Shown one piece after another: positions 9,803-52,308 of a stretch of DNA of 64,000 nucleotides. A model generated the notes under the pieces. The model saw only the letters and a list, made by a program, of their open reading frames with translations. It searched no databases and had not been told where the DNA came from. A program made the translations under genes and the position numbers. The DNA comes from an uncultured Gemmatimonadales bacterium (lineage in GTDB: Bacteria > Gemmatimonadota > Gemmatimonadetes > Gemmatimonadales > GWC2-71-9). Within the stretch, counting starts at the first letter, position 1, and every line of letters begins with the position of its first letter. The stretch lies in assembly GCA_963695555.1 (NCBI GenBank), contig CAVOGR010000001.1, positions 960,001 through 1,024,000 on the forward strand. Direction: 5' to 3'.

Positions 9803-10533
9803 GTGCCGCGATCGAGCTCGAGCGGGTGTCGTTCAGCTACGGCGGGCCCCTGGTTCTGGAAGACATCGATCTCACCGTCGAAGAGGGCGAGTTCCTTGGC
9901 CTGGTGGGTCCCAATGCCAGCGGCAAGAGCACGTTGCTCAAGGTCATGCTCGGTCTCTTCCGGCCCACCGCGGGCCGAGTGCGGGTGTTCGGCCGCGATC
10001 CGGTAGACGGGCGCCACGCCATCGGCTACGTGCCCCAGTTCGCGACGTTCCGGCGGGACTTCCCGATCCTGGTTCGAGACATGGTGCTCCTGGGGCGGCT
10101 CGGCGCCACGCGGGTGCTGGGCGGCTATCGAGCGGCAGATCACGCCGCCGCCGAGCTCGCCATGCGTGAGGCCCAGGTCTGGGACGTCCGAGCCAACCCG
10201 ATCGGGATGCTCTCGGGCGGTCAGCTGCAGCGGGCGCTGGTGGCGCGGGCTCTGGTCTCGAATCCCAAGATCCTCATTCTCGATGAACCGACCTCGAACA
10301 TCGATGTGTTGGCGGAGGCCGACATTTTCACATTATTCCGGACGCTCAATGAGCGCATGACGATCGTTGTGGTGTCTCATGACGTCGGGTTCATCACCCA
10401 GTACGTGCATCGCGTGGCCTGCTTGAACCGGACCTTGGTGTGCCACCCCACCGGCGCCATCACCGGCGAGGTCATCGCCCAGTTGTACGGCACGCCGGTG
10501 CGGCTCATCGACCACGGCCATGACCACTCATAG
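9799..10533 (+). CDS. znuC: Metal ABC transporter ATP-binding protein
   Basis: GPNASGKST, LSGGQ, ILDEP, VSHD; His-rich tail; ATGA overlap. Confidence 0.88.
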   Translation: MSAAIELERVSFSYGGPLVLEDIDLTVEEGEFLGLVGPNASGKSTLLKVMLGLFRPTAGRVRVFGRDPVDGRHAIGYVPQFATFRRDFPILVRDMVLLGRLGATRVLGGYRAADHAAAELAMREAQVWDVRANPIGMLSGGQLQRALVARALVSNPKILILDEPTSNIDVLAEADIFTLFRTLNERMTIVVVSHDVGFITQYVHRVACLNRTLVCHPTGAITGEVIAQLYGTPVRLIDHGHDHS

Positions 10534-10539
10534 GATGCT

Positions 10540-11397
10540 GTGATGGGCGAGTTCTTCCGAACGCTTGCCACCGAGCAGTTCCTCCAGCACGCCTTGGCGG
10601 CGGGAATCCTCGCGAGCATCGGCTGCGGGGTCATGGGCTCCTACGTGGTGGTCAAGCGTATCGGCTACTTGGCGGGGGGTATCGCCCACGCCGTGCTGGG
10701 CGGGATGGGGATCGCGTACTTTTTTGGCCAGGACCCGATCCTCGGCGCACTGATCGCCGCGCTCGCGGCAGCCCTCATCGTGGGGTGGGTCAGCCGCCAC
10801 GGAACCGAGCATGTCGACACACTGATCGGTGCCCTGTGGGCCGTCGGCATGGCGATCGGGATTCTCTTCATTTCGCAGACCCCGGGCTACAACGTCGACC
10901 TGTTGAGCTACCTGTTTGGCAACATCTTGATGGTGGCTCCGAAAGGCCTGCTGTTCATTGCGATTCTCGACCTGATCATCGTGGTCTTGGTCTTGTTGCT
11001 CTACCGGCAATTCCTGGCCGTCGCGTTCGACGAGGAATTTGCCCTGCTCCGCGGCGTCTCCGTCGAGTTCGTCGATCTGCTACTCCTCTCCCTGGTGGCC
11101 CTCACGGTCGTCACGCTGATTCGGGTGGTCGGGCTGATCTTGGTGATCGCCCTGCTCACGCTCCCAGCGGCCATTGCCGGGCAATACGTCCGTTCCCTGG
11201 GACGCATGATGCTGCTGGCCATCGTTCTGGGGATGGGGTTTACGGTCGGCGGGCTGGCGCTGTCATTCCGCCCCGACCTCCCGGCAGGCGCTTCCATTAT
11301 TGTGGTGGCCGGGGTCGCGTACCTGGTGTCGACCGGGCTCCAGGCCGCCCTCAGGTGGCGGAAGATGCGCGGCTTACGAGGGCGACACTCCGCCTAG
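10540..11397 (+). CDS. znuB: Metal ABC transporter permease
   Basis: ABC-3 family features GGIAHAVLGG, LLSYLFGNIL, FDEEFA. Confidence 0.88.
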   Translation: MMGEFFRTLATEQFLQHALAAGILASIGCGVMGSYVVVKRIGYLAGGIAHAVLGGMGIAYFFGQDPILGALIAALAAALIVGWVSRHGTEHVDTLIGALWAVGMAIGILFISQTPGYNVDLLSYLFGNILMVAPKGLLFIAILDLIIVVLVLLLYRQFLAVAFDEEFALLRGVSVEFVDLLLLSLVALTVVTLIRVVGLILVIALLTLPAAIAGQYVRSLGRMMLLAIVLGMGFTVGGLALSFRPDLPAGASIIVVAGVAYLVSTGLQAALRWRKMRGLRGRHSA

Positions 11398-11422
11398 GCA
11401 CGCCGCGCTCCCCAGACCGACC

Positions 11423-12415
11423 TCAATGGCTCATCCGGTAGGTCAAGTACAGTCCCACCAGATACGTGATCAAGATGAACGCGGGTCCGGGCTCGATGAT
11501 CCACCAGCGTCGCTCGGACTTGTTGAGGATGTCGAGGATGGCGATCCCCATCATCAAGACCCCTACCAGCGCGCCGATGACGAGGGCCGGGTGGACCTGG
11601 GCCAGCAGCGATTCCGAGCCGTTCAGAATGTCCAATGGGAAGAGCACGGCGATGTTGAAGCAGTTGCTGCCAAGCAGCGTCCCGACGGCCAAGTTGTAGG
11701 CACCGGCCCGAATGCACGCCAGGGTCACCGCGGCCTCCGGCAGGGAGGTGGTGAATGCCAGGAGGATCATCCCGACGAAGCCCTGGGTCAGGTTCCATTG
11801 CTCCGCGAGATCTGCCGCGGAGGACGCCACGTACCGGGCGGCCAAGAGAATGACCAGCGAGGCGACGCCGAAGCCGATTACCGCGGACCCGATGGTGCGG
11901 GGCGGGGCTTTTCCGGTCGCCACTTCCTCCGGGGTGCGAAAGGGCGGACCCTCTCGATTTCGGTGCAGGAGCCGCATGCCCGCGACGTACGTGAGGCCGA
12001 TCACCAAGGAGGCCCATCCGAGGCCGACGAAGGTGGGGGTCGAGTGCGTGACGATCCCCATCGCGGCCATCACCGTGAGACAGATCGCCAACACGCCGAC
12101 CAGCGCCTGGTTGACGGCGACTCGGGTCAGGATGTGGCCCTGACGGTGCAGGAGGTCGGCAACGGCGAGGATGGCCATGTTCGCCATGCTCGAGCCGAAG
12201 AGATCTCCGACTGCGAGTCCGGGAGAGCCTTGCAGGACCGCATGTCCATCGGTAGCCAGCTCCGGGAGCGATGTCACGGCCGCCACCAGGATCGCGCCGA
12301 CCCAGGCCCCGCCGAGTCCGGTGACCTCGGCGATGGTATCACCGTCGCGAGCTAACCGTGAGCCGGCGGCGGCCACGGTGGCAGCGCTGATCAGGAACAC
12401 CAACCAAGCGGGCAT
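11423..12415 (-). CDS. Sodium:calcium antiporter (CaCA/YrbG-like)
   Basis: Two alpha-repeats TSLPEL...GSSMAN and TSLPEA...GSNCFN; multiple TMs. Confidence 0.88.
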   Translation of the reverse strand: MPAWLVFLISAATVAAAGSRLARDGDTIAEVTGLGGAWVGAILVAAVTSLPELATDGHAVLQGSPGLAVGDLFGSSMANMAILAVADLLHRQGHILTRVAVNQALVGVLAICLTVMAAMGIVTHSTPTFVGLGWASLVIGLTYVAGMRLLHRNREGPPFRTPEEVATGKAPPRTIGSAVIGFGVASLVILLAARYVASSAADLAEQWNLTQGFVGMILLAFTTSLPEAAVTLACIRAGAYNLAVGTLLGSNCFNIAVLFPLDILNGSESLLAQVHPALVIGALVGVLMMGIAILDILNKSERRWWIIEPGPAFILITYLVGLYLTYRMSH

Positions 12416-12729
12416 ATCAGTTCCGATTCAGGTCCTCGGGGGTCACCGGCCGACGCGCGAAGAAATGTCGCCGCGTAGCATAGCTCACAGGCGGCCGGTG
12501 GGGCAGGGCTTTGCGGTGGACGCCCCACGTCGCCCCCCGGGCCACGGGCTGCCCGAGGTTGAGACTAGGGAAAGCCCGGTGAAATCCTGGTGAAGCGTGC
12601 CTGAAGGTGTGACCCAGGATTGCCCAGTCTGAATGAGTCTTTAGGTTGGGTTCAGGACAGCTTTAGAGCCCACAGGCGATCTTGTAGGAGGTTCGAGCAA
12701 CTCGGTTCCACCTCAGCGAGGAGGGACTC

Positions 12730-13011
12730 ATGGTGGCGAAATCGGCGTCCAAGACCAAGCGGAGCCATCTCACGAAGTCGGCCGAGGTTGCGGGAGCCAG
12801 CCACGAGGAGCTGGTGCAATCGCTCGTCGCATCGCTCGAGAACAGCTTCTCCCCCGCAAAGCACGAGCACGCGCTGGAGTGGGCCATGCGCCTCTTTCGG
12901 GACTTAGATGAACCCACCCTCCGTGGGCTCGTCTACCGCTACGGCCTATTTGAAGAGCCCATGAAGGTAGAGGACGAACGACCGGCTTCTCGGGATACGA
13001 TCGAGGAGTGA
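12730..13011 (+). CDS. Hypothetical protein (93 aa)
   Basis: GAGGAGGG RBS before ATG; plausible helical composition. Confidence 0.55.
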   Translation: MVAKSASKTKRSHLTKSAEVAGASHEELVQSLVASLENSFSPAKHEHALEWAMRLFRDLDEPTLRGLVYRYGLFEEPMKVEDERPASRDTIEE

Positions 13012-13118
13012 CGTCCGACCCTGCCCGAGTGCGTGGAGGCAGGAGGCCGCGCGAGGTCGGTGTTGGAGACCCTGGACATAGCCCGATTGCGATCGAGAAT
13101 CACTGAGCCCGGGTCCCC

Positions 13119-13688
13119 TTACTCGTAGCCGGCAGCGTTCTCCCGGCCTGCCGGCATCCGGACCAACGTCACGGTGCTGGCCTGTGGTCCTTCATCGCCT
13201 TCCTCCTCGACGAAACGCACCTCCGCGCCCTCGGCGAGCTTCTCGAAGTTCCCGTTGAGCACGCTGTTGCGGTGGAAGTAGATCTCACGACCCAAATCAT
13301 CCTGGAGAAACCCGTAACCTTCATAGGGGAACAGCGTCAGGACCCGCGCTCGGTTGGGTGGCGGAGGGGCCTTCACCAAGCCCCGCCGGCGCCGGGTGTA
13401 GTCCTGCACCTGCCGCTTGGCCACATCGAACGCGTCCTGGAGGGCTGTTCTGAGGTCGGCCTGCGGCTGTCGCTTCACCACCAGCTCGCGCCCCGGCAAG
13501 GTCAAGTCGATACGCACGAGATACTGGATGCCCTCATTGCCGCGCCGGTGTGGTGTCTCAACCATGACACGGCAACTCATGATCCGATCCGCCATACTGT
13601 CGAGCTTCATTGCTTCGCTTCGGATTGCCTCTTCTTCGGAAATGGAGAGGCTGATGTTGCGAGTCGCGACTTGCAGCGGAAGCTCCAT
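13119..13688 (-). CDS. HPF/RaiA ribosome hibernation domain fused to cold-shock domain
   Basis: N-terminal CRVMVE...VRIDLTLPG...ALQDAFDVAKRQV; C-terminal GYGFL, IYFHRNSV, GPQASTV. Confidence 0.88.
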   Translation of the reverse strand: MELPLQVATRNISLSISEEEAIRSEAMKLDSMADRIMSCRVMVETPHRRGNEGIQYLVRIDLTLPGRELVVKRQPQADLRTALQDAFDVAKRQVQDYTRRRRGLVKAPPPPNRARVLTLFPYEGYGFLQDDLGREIYFHRNSVLNGNFEKLAEGAEVRFVEEEGDEGPQASTVTLVRMPAGRENAAGYE

Positions 13689-45306: not shown

Positions 45307-46952
<1,646 letters not shown>

Positions 46953-46987
46953 CGCCGGCGCCGCGCCTGGGGTAGGATGTGGCGCTC

Positions 46988-47061
<74 letters not shown>

Positions 47062-47275
47062 CTCCTGAGTTCCGATTCACCCCGCCTGACCGAATCCCTT
47101 CCTCGCAGAATTCCGTGGCGCGCTATATTAGCTACCCGCGCGGGCCGGAGGGCTGTCCCGAGCCCGCCGCCAGTCGCATAGGAACCGTGAGCCCGTGAAT
47201 CTCCGAGCGACGTGAAGAAATGGTAGGCGCACCGGCGAGCGGAGCAGACCTCACATCACTAGGGTGGTGCAGAAT

Positions 47276-47881
47276 ATGACTGCGAGCAAACACAAAGCAG
47301 GCCGGGCCTCGTCCCAGGCCCCGAGTCGTCGCTCCGAGTCTGATGAGGACGGGGCAGGCGGGAACATCGATAAGATCCGGGACATCATTTTCGGCAGCCA
47401 GATGCAGGAGTACGACCGGCGTTTCCGTGCGCTGGAGGACCGGCTCCTTAAGGCCTCAGCCGATCTCAGGACAGACCTCGACAAACGGGTGTCCACGCTC
47501 GAGTCCTACTTCCGGAAGGAACTCGAATCGCTCGGGGCGAGCCTCAAGACCGAACAGCAGAGCCGGGCGTCGTCCCTGGAAGAAGCTGTGGCCAAACTCG
47601 CCGAGCTGCGAAAACACGCCATGCAGCAGCTCACGACCGTCGCCAACGAGGCCGCTGAGCGCGATCGAGACTTGCGCGGCCAGCTCGAGGAGCGCGCACA
47701 ATCGTTGAGCCGAGAGATTCAGGACAAAGTGTCGGCCCTCACCCTGGAGCTCAAACGTGAGGCGGATGAGCTGAGGCAGGGCAAGACCGATCGGACCGGG
47801 TTGGCAGCGCTCCTGAGTGAGATGGCGCTCCGGCTCGCGGAGGAGGCTCCACCCAAGGATCATGGGCGAAAGAAAGGCTGA
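47276..47881 (+). CDS. Coiled-coil hypothetical protein
   Basis: IDKIRDIIFGSQMQEYDRRF followed by heptad-rich helix and KTDRTGLAALLSEMA; start 47264 or 47276. Confidence 0.78.
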   Translation: MTASKHKAGRASSQAPSRRSESDEDGAGGNIDKIRDIIFGSQMQEYDRRFRALEDRLLKASADLRTDLDKRVSTLESYFRKELESLGASLKTEQQSRASSLEEAVAKLAELRKHAMQQLTTVANEAAERDRDLRGQLEERAQSLSREIQDKVSALTLELKREADELRQGKTDRTGLAALLSEMALRLAEEAPPKDHGRKKG

Positions 47882-49631
47882 CACCTTGACCGACGGGCGT
47901 GAGATTCCCGATCCAGAGGGGGACGGCGACAACGGAGCGTTCGGAGAGGCGCGACGGCTGGAGGAGCTGAGAACACTCCTCCGCGGCCCCGACTGGGACA
48001 AGGTGGTCGAGCTCCGCGAGCGGCTCAGCGATCCGGAGAAGTACGCGGAGGATGTCGGGCGCGCCTTGCCGTCCGCCGTGACCCTGAGTCGAGGCCAGGA
48101 TCAGCGCCTCGAGCAATCCCTGAGTCCGATCGTGGCGGAGTCGTTCAAGGACACGGTCCGTCGCGATCCGCGTACCTTCGCCGACGCCATCTTTCCCGTC
48201 ATCGGGCCCGCGATCCGGAAATACATCGCGAACGCGCTCGCCGGAATCGTCCAGTCGATCAACCAGGGCCTGAACAACACCTTCACCCCCCGAGGCCTCC
48301 GGTGGCGCTGGGAAGCCTTCCGCACCGGCACGTCGTTCGGAGAGATCGCCCTCCGACACAGCCTGGTCTACCGGGTGGAGCAGGTGTACCTGATTCACAA
48401 GGAGACCAGTCTCCTGCTCGAGCATGTGGTCGCGGAGAACATCGAAGCCCAATCGCCGGACATGGTGGCCGCGATGCTCACGGTCATCCAGGACTATTTC
48501 AAGGATTCGTTCCACGCGGCTCCGGGTGAAACATTCGATGCGCTGAGCGTGGGCGATGTCAGCGTGTGGGTCGAAGTAGGCCCAGAGGCGATCTTGGCGG
48601 CTGTCATCCGTGGCCAGGCCCCGGTAGGGTTGCGCGAGGAATTCGAGGCGGCGCTGGAAGACATCCACGCCACTCACCGCGTGCCCCTGGAGTCCTTCGA
48701 CGGCGATGCGGGCGCCTTTGCAACCGCTCGCCCGCGCCTCGAGGAGTGCCTTCATTCCAAGCTCGCCGAGCCGGTCGCACGGCCGCCCTGGTTTGCGCTT
48801 GCCCTCATCTCGGTGGTGGTGCTCCTCGTTGCCTGGTGGGCCATTCCCCGGATCATCGAGAGCCGTCGGTGGCATGCCTATCAGGTTCGGCTCCAAGACG
48901 AGCCGGGAGTCGTTGTCACTCAGGTCGGGCAGCGCGACGGGAAGCGGTATGTCGCCGGGTTGCGTGATGCCTTGGCACCCGATCCTCAGATGTTCCTCGA
49001 CACGGTTGGGCTCGACCCCGAGCGGGTAGAGAGCCGGTGGGATCCCTACATTTCGCTCCTGCCCGACCTCATCCTGCGCCGCGCGCGGGCCAGCCTCGAT
49101 CCGCCCGCCGGGTTGGATCTTTCCTTGCGCGATGGGGTCCTCATCGCGACCGGGTCGGCTCCGACGGACTGGATCGACCGGGCGCGCCACGTTGCGCCGA
49201 CCATTCCGGGGGTGGTCGGATTCGAGGTTTCGGATCAGGTGCTGAGCGGCCTCGCGGCCGAAATCCAACGTCGGTCGGTACTCTTTGCGGTTGGCAGTGA
49301 CACCCCGAATATTCCGGAAGCCGTCGAGGAGATCGCCGGTCAGGTGAGAGCGCTGGACGTGGCGGCGCGGGCCCGGGGCCGGAGCGTGACCGTCGAAGTG
49401 CGTGGCTCGACGGACGACCTGGGAGACTCGCTCTCCAACGCCCGCTTGGCCTTGGCGCGGGCGCAACGGGTCCGTGCCATGTTGCTGGCGGCCGGCGTCG
49501 GCCGGGCAGAGGTGCGTGCCATGCGCGAGCCGCTCGCCCCGCCAACCGATCCGGGTGACGCGGTCCGGGCCAGATACCGCCGGGCCTCATTCTCGATCAT
49601 TCTCAATACCGGTTCCGAGGGATCGCCGTGA
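47862..49631 (+). CDS. Trans-envelope protein: helical N-terminus, putative longin-like domain, TM helix, periplasmic domain, OmpA-like C-terminus
   Basis: TM PWFALALISVVVLLVAWWAIP; OmpA-like VRGSTD...NARLALARAQRV...RYRRASF. Confidence 0.8.
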   Translation: MGERKADTLTDGREIPDPEGDGDNGAFGEARRLEELRTLLRGPDWDKVVELRERLSDPEKYAEDVGRALPSAVTLSRGQDQRLEQSLSPIVAESFKDTVRRDPRTFADAIFPVIGPAIRKYIANALAGIVQSINQGLNNTFTPRGLRWRWEAFRTGTSFGEIALRHSLVYRVEQVYLIHKETSLLLEHVVAENIEAQSPDMVAAMLTVIQDYFKDSFHAAPGETFDALSVGDVSVWVEVGPEAILAAVIRGQAPVGLREEFEAALEDIHATHRVPLESFDGDAGAFATARPRLEECLHSKLAEPVARPPWFALALISVVVLLVAWWAIPRIIESRRWHAYQVRLQDEPGVVVTQVGQRDGKRYVAGLRDALAPDPQMFLDTVGLDPERVESRWDPYISLLPDLILRRARASLDPPAGLDLSLRDGVLIATGSAPTDWIDRARHVAPTIPGVVGFEVSDQVLSGLAAEIQRRSVLFAVGSDTPNIPEAVEEIAGQVRALDVAARARGRSVTVEVRGSTDDLGDSLSNARLALARAQRVRAMLLAAGVGRAEVRAMREPLAPPTDPGDAVRARYRRASFSIILNTGSEGSP

Positions 49632-50128
49632 CGCTCATTCAGAAGAAGGTCTGTATGCTGGGTGCGAGCCGCGTGGGGAAGACCAGCCTGGTGCGGCGGT
49701 TCGTCGAGAGCCTGTTCTCCGAGAAGTACCATCAAACGGTCGGTGTGAAAATCGATCGCAAGGTCGTGGCCGTCGCGAACGACACCGTCGGGCTCATGCT
49801 CTGGGACCTGCAGGGCGAAGCCGAGGATCAGGCGTTCCGTCCCCAATACCTGCGCGGCGCGGCCGGGCTCCTGGCAGTCGCCGATGGGACCAATGCGGCC
49901 ACGCTCGAACCCGCCCTCCGGCTCGTTGAGACCGCCCGCACTGCCCTCGGCGTCGTGCCCCACGTGCTGCTGCTCAACAAGAGGGATCTCGAGGCGGAAT
50001 GGGCGGTTTCCGACGCGGAGCTGGCCCGGCTCCAGAAGGAGGGTCACGCGGTGCTCATGACGAGTGCCAAGACGGGCGAAGGGGTCGAGGAGGCCTTCAG
50101 GCTCCTCACCGAGAAGATGCTCGCATAA
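49628..50128 (+). CDS. Rab/Ras-like small GTPase
   Basis: G1 GASRVGKTS, G2 TVGV, G3 WDLQG, G4 NKRD, G5 SAK; 166 aa; GTGA overlap. Confidence 0.92.
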   Translation: MTLIQKKVCMLGASRVGKTSLVRRFVESLFSEKYHQTVGVKIDRKVVAVANDTVGLMLWDLQGEAEDQAFRPQYLRGAAGLLAVADGTNAATLEPALRLVETARTALGVVPHVLLLNKRDLEAEWAVSDAELARLQKEGHAVLMTSAKTGEGVEEAFRLLTEKMLA

Positions 50129-50281
50129 CACGCCTCGCGCCTGTCAGGCTCCCCCCGCGGTCTCATTTCCAGAAAGCCCGTCCGGCATTCGGATCATCGT
50201 ACTTCGTCCATCACATCACATGATGCAGGTAACATCCTCTCCTGTATTCTCTTACATGAGTTGACGGCGATCCCATTTTGG

Positions 50282-50297
50282 TGGCCCCGCGCTTGCC
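50282..50297 (+). promoter_or_regulatory. Putative sigma54 -24/-12 promoter
   Basis: TGGCCCCGCGCTTGCC (GG-N10-GC with TTGC) after an AT-richer tract. Confidence 0.5.
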
Positions 50298-50338
50298 CTT
50301 TAGCTATGGCAACTGGGCAAACGAATCGGGGGCATGGC

Positions 50339-50746
50339 GTGAAGAACCTGTTCAATCAAGTTGCTGGGCGGATGGGAGTGCCATCGGGAGACACAGGTGA
50401 CCCCACGAGTCTCGGGCAGCTCCTGCTCGGGATGATCGGTTCGGAGCAGGGCGCGCTTGCCGGCCTCACCAAGCTATTTCATGACCAGGGGCTTGGCGAC
50501 GTCGTCGATTCCTGGGTCGGCAGCGGAGTGAAGCGGCCGATTTCGGCCGAGCAGGTCCGACAGGTTCTCGGGGAGGAACGGTTGGCGGCATTGGGCAAGG
50601 GAGCCGGTCTAGCCCCGGAGAATGTGGCGACCGGGCTGGCTGCCCTCCTGCCGAGAGCGGTGAGTTCGCTCGTGTCCGGAGGTCACAGTAGCGAGGCCGG
50701 GTCAGTCCCTCGGATGCAGACCCCCCTAGCGAAAAAGCCGCGATGA
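50339..50746 (+). CDS. YidB/DUF937 family protein
   Basis: GLGDVVDSWVGSG...PISAEQV...LAALLP. Confidence 0.82.
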   Translation: MKNLFNQVAGRMGVPSGDTGDPTSLGQLLLGMIGSEQGALAGLTKLFHDQGLGDVVDSWVGSGVKRPISAEQVRQVLGEERLAALGKGAGLAPENVATGLAALLPRAVSSLVSGGHSSEAGSVPRMQTPLAKKPR

Positions 50747-50932
50747 TATGAACTTAAGGGGCAAACCGCCCGGGGCCGCGGGCGGGAGGCGGGTTGCCGG
50801 AACAGTGTCGGGCGCCTGTCAGTGAACGCCCCTTCATGCTGCATTCAGGAACGAGTCAGTACGGAAGGGCACAGTGTGGTGATTCGTGCCACGGTTCCTT
50901 CGCGGCCAGTCTAACCCGTTCAGGAGAACGCA

Positions 50933-52308
50933 ATGATAGCTCGTTTGGTTGGTCTGTGTGGGGCAGCCGTGCTGTTCTTGGCTGCGCCGCTCGCAGCCCA
51001 GAAAGCAGGAACGATCGAGCTGGGATTCTTCGGTCGCTACACCAACTTCGACCAGTCCCTGCAGGTGGCGGATGGTGGTGGCGCCGGTGGTCGGCTCGGC
51101 ATCTTCGTCGCGCGGAATCTGGAACTCGAAGGGGATGCCTCGTACTCGTCCCTGCCGCGTGAAGGTGGGATCGGCGGACATCTGTCCGCAGTGCCGATTC
51201 ACGCCCGCTTGCTCTACAACTTCCCGGTCGGCCGAGCACTCCGCCTTTCTGCTCGGCGGGGGCTGGACCCACAATGAATACGGCAAGTCGTACAAGGCGA
51301 AGGATGACGGGTTTGGCGGTCTCGCAGGCGTGCGGCTGGGAATGGGTGGCACTGGTGTCCATTCGGTTGGACATCACCGCCGACTACATGAGCTCGCCGG
51401 CCGTCGACACCATCTTCGCCGACGTCGACAACTGGAACTACGGCGTGCAGGCCGGCTTGAGCCTGCTCACCGGCCAGGGGCCACGGGATTCGGATCGTGA
51501 CGGTATCACCGACGAGTTCGACCGGTGTCCCAACACCCCGCGTGGCGCTGTGGTGGACTCCAACGGCTGTCCCGACAGCGACGGAGACGGTGTCTTCGAT
51601 CTGACGGATCAGTGTGCCAATACGCCGGCCGGTGACCGCGTCGATGCCCGCGGCTGCTCGTTGCCCAAGGATGCAGACGGCGACGGCGTGGTGGATTCGG
51701 CCGATCGCTGCCCGAACACACCGGCTGGTGACGCGGTTGATGCGAACGGCTGCTCGTTGCCCAAGGATGCCGATGGCGACGGTGTGGTGGATTCGGCCGA
51801 TCGCTGCCCGAACACCCCACGTGGTACGGCGGTGGACGCCAGTGGCTGCCCGATTCCGCAGGACTCCGATAACGACGGCGTGAACGACGACCGCGACCGC
51901 TGCCCGGGCACGCCCGCCGGGGTCCAAGTCGACGCCGTAGGCTGCCGGATCCTGTTCCAGGAGCGGCAGACCACCTTGATTCTCGAGGGCGTGAACTTCG
52001 AGACTGGCAAGTCCGCTCTGACGGATGCCGCCCGAGCGATCCTGCTCACCGTGGCGCAGTCGTTGGTTGCCAACCCGGATATTCGGGTGGAGGTCGGTGG
52101 CCACACGGACATCACCGGTTCCCGGGCCTTGAACATGCGGTTGTCGCAAGCCCGTGCTGAATCGGTGCAGCAGTTCCTGACTCAGAACGGCGTGAGTGCC
52201 AATCGGCTCTCGGCTCGAGGGTATGGGCCGGACAAGCCGGTCGCCACGAACAACACGCGCGCGGGTCGGGCGCAGAACCGTCGGGTGGAGCTTACCCGTC
52301 AGAACTAG
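50933..52308 (+). CDS. OmpA-family outer-membrane protein (beta-barrel, TSP3-like repeats, OmpA C-terminal domain); two frameshifts (~51235, ~51350)
   Basis: AGGAG RBS, signal peptide, barrel strands over three frames, DxDGDGVxDxxDxCPNTP repeats, GHTD...LSQARA...NRRVE. Confidence 0.85.
51487..51945 (+). repeat. Five TSP3-like Ca-binding repeats, two nearly identical with 96-bp period
   Basis: ggctgctcgttgcccaaggatgc...cgctgcccgaacac at 51652 and 51748. Confidence 0.85.

Follow-up and report, generated by a model that had tools for sequence, protein, structure and literature searches.

Group 1 Rup GTPases were defined by Wuichet and Søgaard-Andersen (Genome Biol Evol 2014; PMC4316618) from genomes only. 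They have eukaryote-like G motifs and lack the G3 Gln. The genes next to theirs code for a coiled-coil protein (DUFY), for a protein that combines an unknown domain with a membrane helix and an OmpA domain (DUFX:OmpA), and usually for a signaling output protein. The N-terminal domain of this output protein contains an invariant Gln and was proposed to be a GAP (GTPase-activating protein) that acts in trans (PMC4316618). Table S2 of that paper holds 27 Group 1 entries, mostly arranged as DUFY>DUFX(:OmpA)>Rup with GTPases of 158 to 181 aa, and none of these entries is from Gemmatimonadetes; operons of Nostoc punctiforme and Anabaena are among them. A later preprint, in which the group is called Rup1, placed it with eukaryotic Rab/Ras/Rho/Ran and Asgard RasL (bioRxiv 2024.02.28.582541). 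Here, we describe a three-gene locus of this kind in a 64,000-nucleotide stretch of DNA (referred to here as the window) from an uncultured Gemmatimonadales bacterium (assembly GCA_963695555.1; contig CAVOGR010000001.1, positions 960,001 to 1,024,000). The trio encodes a coiled-coil protein (gene 1), a membrane protein ending in an OmpA-like domain (gene 2), and a Rab-like GTPase (gene 3). The cytoplasmic part of the membrane protein includes a region that models as a longin domain, and the GTPase is predicted to dock on it.

All three core genes of the published Group 1 Rup system occur in the trio in unchanged order, and the GTPase of the trio (166 aa, compared with 158 to 181 aa) likewise has no G3 Gln. 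Because published Group 1 is matched in both respects, we assign the trio, on sequence grounds, to the Rup1 cassette as a Gemmatimonadales member. The published system also includes a "fourth highly conserved gene," which was not found in the window genome. Given that the neighborhood strings of Table S2 name only DUFY, DUFX, and Rup (PMC4316618), we regard this gene as a frequent accessory and not as a criterion for Group 1. Genes 1 and 2 overlap by 20 nt, and the gene 2 stop overlaps the gene 3 start by 4 nt, with the GTG start within GTGA. These same-strand open reading frames (ORFs) are the three overlapping genes that a preliminary description of the window, made from the sequence alone, had placed here.

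We modeled gene 2 residues 1 to 307 with AlphaFold2 (AF2) from a 79-sequence alignment (mean predicted local distance difference test [pLDDT] score, 61.8). From residue 168, the model follows the order strand-strand-helix-strand-strand-strand-helix-helix. Block pLDDT values within residues 168 to 300 were 77 to 89 for most strands and the C-terminal helices and ~48 to 66 over residues 191 to 230. Nearly all Foldseek matches in the Protein Data Bank (PDB) were longin or roadblock structures (Mon1-Ccz1, AP sigma, Sec22b, TRAPP, Rag/Ragulator, and MglB), eight of them at E ≤ 1e-3; MglB chains were matched at E values of 2e-3 to 6e-3 (MglB-MglA structure 3t12_C, 1.9e-3). Regarding structural alignment by VIA-align, the Sec22b longin domain scored highest of the structures named here (Z, 13.5; root mean square deviation, 2.6 Å; 124 of 127 residues), followed by Fuzzy-Inturned, Ykt6, VAMP7, synbindin, and Mon1-Ccz1 (Z, 10 to 12.5), all over residues ~168 to 302, with Roadblock proteins (MglB) below the longins in the Z order. 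Gene 2 residues 168 to 302 thus model as a longin domain. In PMC4316618, DUFX is left as a domain of unknown function; in our model, the DUFX of gene 2 contains this longin domain.

The longin fold is close to the Roadblock fold of MglB (PMC10933270 and PMC3747258). Gene 2 had no match to PF03259 (Robl_LC7), while five places elsewhere in the genome did, and neither the ORFs nor the Pfam matches beside the trio included a separate Roadblock/MglB gene. The preliminary statement that no MglB-type gene lies beside the GTPase therefore holds for a separate gene, but gene 2 itself carries the modeled longin domain, with a fold near that of the MglB Roadblock. The strand1-strand2 loop of this domain reads basic-x-T-G-L, in which G183 and L184 are conserved, and has no GP motif, Pro, or invariant Arg. 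A GP motif just before strand 2 and a conserved arginine finger mark the GAP longins FLCN, SMCR8, and NPRL2 (PMC12290439), and the gene 2 loop does not have this signature. Because these features are missing, the loop tilts the interpretation away from an activator-type longin and toward one of the exchange-factor type or an anchoring platform.

To model the complex, two copies of gene 2 residues 140 to 307 were co-folded with one GTPase, using 72-row alignments in the same locus order for each protein. The interface score (ipSAE) was 0.80, 0.80, and 0.81 in three runs, compared with 0.01 for the best of three controls, and the models contained 75 to 80 contacts with a partner pLDDT of 84. When the tool was calibrated, 116 of 157 solved complexes but only 2 of 215 mismatched pairs attained this mark. 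The predicted longin interface consists of the strand1-strand2 loop (residues 181 to 185), the central helix of both copies (residues 197 to 216), and residues 280 to 283 in the region of the invariant F279-G281-D282. The GTPase contributes residues 2 to 7, 27 to 34, 37 to 44, 57 to 59, and 71 to 79 (i.e., switch I, interswitch, and switch II). On the longin side, 12 of 24 interface residues were at least 90% conserved, compared with 40 of 144 other residues (P = 0.029); on the GTPase side, the counts were 13 of 28 and 40 of 138, respectively (P = 0.059). Co-folding had been proposed as a check in the preliminary description; run on the GTPase-longin pair, it is evidence, though not proof, that the GTPase docks on the cytoplasmic part of gene 2.

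The MglA-MglB switch of Myxococcus and Thermus also brings a bacterial Ras-superfamily GTPase together with a dimeric domain of the roadblock/longin group on its switch face, an arrangement that in the trio is predicted. It differs in that gene 3 is Rab/Ras-like and not MglA-like, and in that the candidate regulator is of the longin type, is fused to a membrane and wall anchor, and has no Robl_LC7 match. Eukaryotic longin Rab guanine nucleotide exchange factors (GEFs; Mon1-Ccz1, the TRAPP core, and Fuzzy-Inturned), the longin fold of which is matched by gene 2 (Z, 10 to 12.5), likewise contact switch I, interswitch, and switch II of a GTPase with their central helix and strand1-strand2 loop, as predicted for the trio. 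However, these GEFs are soluble heteromeric complexes on organelle membranes, whereas gene 2 is predicted to be a homodimeric, single-pass, peptidoglycan-tied protein and has no detectable sequence similarity to them. An analogy between Group 1 Rup and the actinobacterial conservon (CvnA-D) was drawn in PMC4316618; unlike the trio, the conservon has an MglA-type GTPase, a free MglB-type protein, and no wall anchor.

The cassette is widely distributed and its genes are tightly linked. More than 1223 gene 2 relatives were present among the candidates scored, and a profile of the cytoplasmic part of gene 2 matched 6113 representative proteins at E ≤ 1e-3, 2389 of them at E ≤ 1e-30. In a search of genome contigs, 579 of 600 pattern matches encoded a gene 2 relative. 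We compiled the best 80 loci among the gene 2 relatives in genome contigs, which represent Gemmatimonadales, Acidobacteriota, Nostocales and other cyanobacteria (including Nostoc, Fischerella, and Calothrix), Desulfobacterales, Verrucomicrobiales, Binatia, Latescibacterota, and Gammaproteobacteria; a Mesorhizobium protein was also among the gene 2 homologues. By tblastn, a gene 1 relative lay directly 5' of the gene 2 relative in 78 of the 80 loci, the misses being L027 (with almost no upstream DNA) and L031. A GTPase gene lay next to the gene 2 relative in 75 loci, i.e., downstream on the same strand in 69 and upstream on the opposite strand in 6 (L006, L008, L011, L023, L053, and L064). The GTPase was missed at a contig end in L002, L028, and L040, while L007 and L038 have flanking DNA without a GTPase gene. 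Furthermore, relatives of both gene 1 and the GTPase were present in 20 of 20 further Gemmatimonadota loci. This linkage is far beyond chance, and the neighborhood conservation on which the preliminary description had staked its reading is confirmed. Two tandem Rup GTPase genes follow the membrane-protein gene in L112, L116, L117, and L118 (Gemmatimonadota) and in L058.

Gene 3 matched Pfam Ras with 98 bits (E = 5.4e-28), and its best 60 matches among PDB sequences were all Rab-type proteins (e.g., Rab4B; E = 2.5e-22). GxxxxGKT, the switch-I Thr37, DxxG, NKxD, and SAK were all read in its sequence and were invariant or nearly so in 65 relatives. The C terminus has no Cys and therefore no prenylation signal. 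Both properties, i.e., a stand-alone 166-aa GTPase with five G motifs and the missing prenylation tail, had been recognized from the sequence beforehand. Where cyanobacterial and acidobacterial loci share this neighborhood, their GTPases are 45 to 59% identical to gene 3, and phmmer found no second Rab-like GTPase in the genome at E ≤ 1e-3. MglA-like GTPases are encoded elsewhere in the genome beside Roadblock genes and had only weak Arf/Gtr1 matches; judged by its sequence, gene 3 does not belong to the MglA family and is nearer to Rab/Ras. Roadblock/LC7 (MglB-like) genes are located at G000:C1:844600-846020, G000:C1:1050900-1052660, and G000:C3:9608-9871 (G000 denotes the window genome). Two of these places directly adjoin genes for MglA-like GTPases of 200 to 224 aa, and one cluster also contains DUF4388 and TPR proteins. 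Thus, the organism has MglA/MglB-type switches besides the Rup cassette. Wuichet and Søgaard-Andersen are said to have predicted in 2014 that Rup GTPases do not interact with MglB.

Regarding catalysis, alignment to Rab4B placed Glu64 of gene 3 at the position of the catalytic Gln of Rab/Ras. The Gln61 equivalent was Glu in 50 of 65 relatives, and Gln was never the majority residue. At the positions of Ras Gly12 and Gly13, gene 3 has Ser14 and Arg15, and the Gly12 equivalent was Phe in 56 of 65 relatives. In Ras and Rnd proteins, such changes at Gln61 and Gly12 cripple hydrolysis. Because the catalytic Gln is missing and the residue at the Ras-12 position is not Gly, gene 3 probably hydrolyzes GTP slowly unless it is helped in trans.

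The remainder of gene 2 would connect the modeled longin domain with the cell wall. Residues 310 to 330 are the only segment above a Kyte-Doolittle value of 1.2, and we infer an N-in/C-out topology from where the domains must act. The helical region ahead of the longin domain (residues 25 to 167) includes conserved positions in alignments of relatives (e.g., P112, W148, R149, and E161); structure searches scarcely sampled this region. On the periplasmic side, a conserved module of ~130 residues is present in two or three copies between the membrane helix and the OmpA-like domain in relatives of 720 to 896 aa (e.g., P0014, P0021, and P0025). The C-terminal domain matched PF00691 over residues 504 to 566 (25.2 bits compared with a cutoff of 27.2; E = 2.1e-5), and PF00691 is precomputed for most of the listed gene 2 homologues. 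Weak matches to YiaD, YfiB, Pal, and TssL in NCBIfam and to OmpA-family and TssL domains among PDB sequences (E, 0.005 to 0.009) were also obtained. G515, D518, G521, N526, R533, and A534 were invariant in 18 of 18 relatives, and we take D518 and R533 to be the Asp and Arg that are conserved in peptidoglycan-binding motifs. At the family level, the sequence points to a diverged OmpA-like member.

Gene 2 is predicted to cross the inner membrane and reach the wall, not to span the whole envelope. The preliminary description of a trans-envelope protein of ~590 aa ending in an OmpA-like domain was therefore accurate for the length (589 aa) and the C terminus but not for the extent of the span. Other bitopic OmpA-like anchors (MotB, the long form of TssL, and YfiB/Pal-type proteins) likewise have one membrane helix followed by a periplasmic OmpA-like domain with the conserved Asp and Arg. 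MotB/TssL-type anchors, however, have a short stator plug or a DotU domain, whereas gene 2 has a cytoplasmic part of ~300 residues with the modeled longin domain and no MotA/TolQ-type partner gene by the trio.

Gene 1 is proline-free over residues 17 to 191; charged residues and Gln together account for 43% of the protein. The hydrophobic occupancy of its heptad a/d positions was 0.696, compared with 0.58 ± 0.03 for shuffled sequences, and was reached by 0 of 200 shuffles. Searches of Pfam and NCBIfam gave subthreshold matches only, with no family above its cutoff, and the nearest Atlas clusters were unnamed hypothetical proteins.

The gene after the GTPase starts with a domain of 130 to 170 aa lacking a Pfam match in 70 of the 80 loci. 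This fourth-gene domain stands alone or is joined to another module, which may be a histidine kinase, PP2C/SpoIIE, adenylate cyclase, HD-GYP, sigma-54 AAA+, or PAS module. Its structure model (pLDDT, 91.8) has a PAS-like fold followed by a long helix, and all 50 listed matches were PAS domains (best, the ThkA PAS domain; Z, 10.8). In L006, L008, and L023 (Desulfobacterales-type), where the GTPase gene is upstream on the opposite strand, a sigma-54 activator follows in which the PAS-like fourth-gene domain replaces the receiver. All four Gemmatimonadales loci, of which two are truncated at a contig end, are among the 10 loci without a fourth gene. A hidden Markov model of the domain had no match in the window genome at E ≤ 10 (assembly completeness, 87.1%). 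Of 301 sampled genomes from the phylum, 23 carried gene 2 and 3 (one genus, on other contigs) carried the fourth-gene domain. A stand-alone PP2C phosphatase gene lies 3' of the GTPase gene in 8 of 20 Gemmatimonadota loci, and the best PP2C homologue of the window genome (41 to 48% identity) is unlinked to the trio. The possibility of a hidden PAS-like N-terminal domain in the PP2C protein encoded after the GTPase was rejected, since hmmsearch --max gave no E value better than 0.63.

A PAS histidine kinase and an NtrC-type sigma-54 regulator are encoded just 5' of gene 1 in L099, L112, L113, L002, and L037, and L118 has the regulator only, before a contig end. By blastn, the window and the same-genus locus L099 were collinear (92 to 96% identity) except for L099 positions 10179 to 13487, which are missing in the window. 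The missing ~3.3 kb correspond to the genes for the PAS histidine kinase and the NtrC-type sigma-54 activator, and the junction lies at 47168 to 47202. Given that the 3' end of the regulator gene survives with its stop codon (Table 1), the deletion occurred in the lineage of the window. L001 (94% identical) has the same upstream genes and keeps the trio, with no kinase or regulator ORF before gene 1 on a cruder ORF map.

We estimated ratios of nonsynonymous to synonymous substitutions (dN/dS) between the window and its two closest relatives, with enolase as a comparison. The ratios were 0.05 to 0.08 for gene 1, 0.19 to 0.23 for gene 2, and 0.06 to 0.21 for gene 3 (enolase, 0.03 to 0.04), which indicates purifying selection on all three genes. 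Contigs carrying the trio at 95 to 99% identity were present in three metatranscriptome libraries from three studies, and two of these contigs bridge gene junctions (47669 to 48629 and 49340 to 49910). Because such libraries can hold DNA and the contigs lack strand, ends, and level, they are only a weak hint of transcription; stretches around the trio without a contig in one RNA run (e.g., 46500 to 47400 and 50275 to 50727) carry no meaning.

On the basis of these results, we consider it probable that the trio as a whole is a Rup1 cassette in which a wall-tied membrane longin protein docks a Rab-like GTPase. Gene 2 would reside in the inner membrane, where its periplasmic OmpA-like domain probably holds the protein to peptidoglycan, and its cytoplasmic half would end in a longin domain that is probably dimeric. 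The longin dimer would dock gene 3 through switch I, interswitch, and switch II and would thereby couple where the GTPase sits, or which nucleotide it carries, to a fixed site in the envelope or to a signal from it. The coiled-coil protein would be an obligate third partner, as a scaffold or an effector. In most family members, the signal would pass to the fourth gene, in which a kinase, phosphatase, cyclase, HD-GYP, or sigma-54 module is attached to the PAS-like domain. In the window genome, the output would instead have to run via the coiled-coil protein or unlinked partners, since the fourth gene was not found and the kinase/NtrC pair was deleted. The wall-anchored receptor with a GTPase switch that the preliminary description had proposed is upheld in its anatomy and general idea by the conserved trio and the co-folding; on the other hand, the cassette had already been published.

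Several points weigh against this interpretation. The longin model is of moderate confidence, both in its mean (61.8) and over residues 191 to 230 (~48 to 66), which hold the interface helix, and gene 2 residues 1 to 475 had no Pfam or NCBIfam match at E ≤ 0.01. The co-folding used its own alignments and a 2:1 setup, which differ from those of the calibration, and its passing the mark may reflect likeness to solved longin/roadblock-GTPase complexes and not a signal of the pair itself. The enrichment of conserved residues at the interface is modest, and binding to the switch regions is just as compatible with an exchange factor as with an activator or an effector. The OmpA-like domain of this copy is below the Pfam cutoff, and the peptidoglycan binding that we propose for it is deduced from conserved residues. 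The fourth gene was not found at an assembly completeness of 87.1%, at which absence is not proven. A literature search in which most subscription journals were outside full-text coverage found no experimental study of any Rup1 member; the preliminary view of Rup-type GTPases as largely uncharacterized had left out the existing catalog of the cassette (PMC4316618).

Among the roles that docking might serve, a membrane-fixed platform of the exchange-factor type, by analogy with the eukaryotic longin Rab GEFs, has in our estimation slightly less than an even chance. A more specific proposal is possible but rather unlikely, namely that bacteria have, in the cytoplasmic domain of the membrane partner of Rup1, a true longin-type exchange platform that is fixed to peptidoglycan and serves a Rab/Ras-like GTPase. 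The longin domain might instead work like MglB and turn the GTPase off at the envelope, either as a GTPase-activating platform or as a coactivator to which a third protein must supply a catalytic residue. This role is somewhat less likely still, and a GTPase without its own Gln would suit it; a trans-acting GAP was proposed in PMC4316618, although the candidate for the Gln in that proposal was the fourth gene and not gene 2. MglB-MglA structures are among the Foldseek matches (3t12_C), and the predicted 2:1 complex, with the central helices of both copies on the GTPase, resembles an asymmetric regulator dimer; in the Z order, however, longins rank above the Roadblock proteins. Of 18 aligned relatives, 14 have a Lys or an Arg at position 180 of the strand1-strand2 loop, but the loop has no invariant Arg or Gln and lacks the GP motif of known longin GAPs. 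It is improbable, though conceivable, that the GTPase is a hydrolysis-poor, mostly GTP-locked adaptor and that the trio forms a structural wall-tethered complex, e.g., a landmark for another machine. Such an adaptor would be consistent with the Glu at the Gln61 equivalent and the bulky Phe at the Gly12 equivalent (50 and 56 of 65 relatives, respectively), with a coiled-coil partner that is nearly always present, and with the lack of a linked signaling output in the window genome. The PAS-like domain, alone or fused to classic signaling outputs, that follows the cassette in 70 of 80 loci points to signaling instead, and the nucleotide-binding motifs are all strictly kept.

The remaining alternatives concern the trio as a whole. 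That it is a decaying leftover, functionless after the loss of the kinase/regulator pair and without an output gene, is suggested by the 3.3-kb deletion with its 3' remnant and by the fourth gene that was not found. We regard this as very unlikely, since the three frames are intact with all motifs kept, dN/dS is 0.05 to 0.23 relative to genomes with and without the deletion, L001 keeps the trio likewise without kinase or regulator ORFs, and RNA-library contigs cover the trio, the last being a weak argument. An anti-phage or conflict system of the Zorya type, with a wall-anchored stator-like protein and a long coiled coil, deserves almost no credence. Such systems, too, have an OmpA-like anchor, and PADLOC weakly matched gene 1 to the ZorA tail region (best E, 6.6e-6; 22.8 bits), but these matches span coiled-coil sequence only. 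Neither gene 2 nor gene 3 matched any PADLOC model, no MotA/ExbB-type channel gene is present among the window ORFs by the trio, and the conserved neighbors of the cassette are mostly two-component or second-messenger outputs or a stand-alone PAS-like protein. With nothing from PADLOC for genes 2 and 3 and only coiled-coil-type ZorA matches for gene 1, the defense-system interpretation was rejected.

The trio is flanked 5' by a tRNA-Met gene (46988 to 47062) and 3' by a YidB-like gene (50261 to 50746). A promoter scan of positions 46500 to 51000 gave a single match, a sigma-70-like site ahead of the tRNA gene, and a terminator scan of the same interval gave none that was convincing within or 3' of the trio. 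Farther downstream, a gene for an outer-membrane beta-barrel/TSP3/OmpA porin (50816 to 52308) is split over more than one frame (ORFs at 50933 to 51277 and 51274 to 52308). By tblastn, it consists of three pieces in three frames, while a same-genus genome has one ORF of 500 aa; one RNA-library contig has an additional C following 50817. Either the gene is frameshifted or the assembly is wrong here.

Table 1. Features of the Rup1 cassette and its 5' boundary (window coordinates)
Feature	Position	Strand	Description	Basis
NtrC-type regulator remnant, deletion scar	47202-47226	+	Last ~24 nt, including stop codon	Alignment to L099
Gene 1 alternative start	GTG 47264	+		
Gene 1	47276-47881	+	201-aa cytoplasmic coiled-coil protein, "DUFY" of the Rup1 cassette	ORF, translation from ATG 47276
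Gene 2 alternative start	GTG 47817	+		
Gene 2	47862-49631	+	589-aa bitopic inner-membrane protein, "DUFX:OmpA"	ORF, translation from ATG 47862
Cytoplasmic helical region	47934-48362	+	Gene 2 residues 25-167	AF2 helices, block pLDDT ~37-72
Longin domain (modeled), predicted GTPase docking site	48363-48767	+	Gene 2 residues 168-302	AF2, Foldseek, VIA-align, co-folding
Transmembrane helix	48789-48851	+	Gene 2 residues 310-330	Kyte-Doolittle 19-residue mean 2.5
Periplasmic conserved module	48852-49271	+	Gene 2 residues ~331-470	Alignment with longer relatives
OmpA-like putative peptidoglycan-binding domain	49356-49601	+	Gene 2 residues 499-580	Weak profile matches and conserved residues
Gene 3	49628-50128	+	166-aa Rup1-type Rab-like GTPase, GTG start	ORF, Pfam Ras

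The cassette itself was catalogued in 2014; of value here are the modeled longin fold of its membrane partner and the predicted docking of the GTPase. Within the full-text coverage described above, no paper tying the Rup1 cassette to a longin domain was found. The window copy comes from a phylum not listed for Group 1 in the original paper and has a trimmed three-gene form. Maintenance of this three-gene core under purifying selection, without the kinase/regulator pair or the fourth gene, suggests that the core is separable from its interchangeable outputs. Rup1 GTPases are the bacterial proteins most like eukaryotic Rab/Ras and have had no bench study; a possible trans-acting glutamine was the only regulator suggested for them so far. 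The predicted docking of the GTPase on a longin domain that is joined to a wall anchor is a concrete hypothesis, cheap to test, and it bears on whether longin-GTPase control predates eukaryotes. If the longin domain proves to be a true exchange platform, a longin-GTPase regulatory pair, usually a hallmark of eukaryotic and Asgard membrane traffic, would be widespread in bacteria (6113 representative proteins), and the bacterial Rup1-longin pairs could be sisters of, or donors to, the regulator-switch pairs of eukaryotes.

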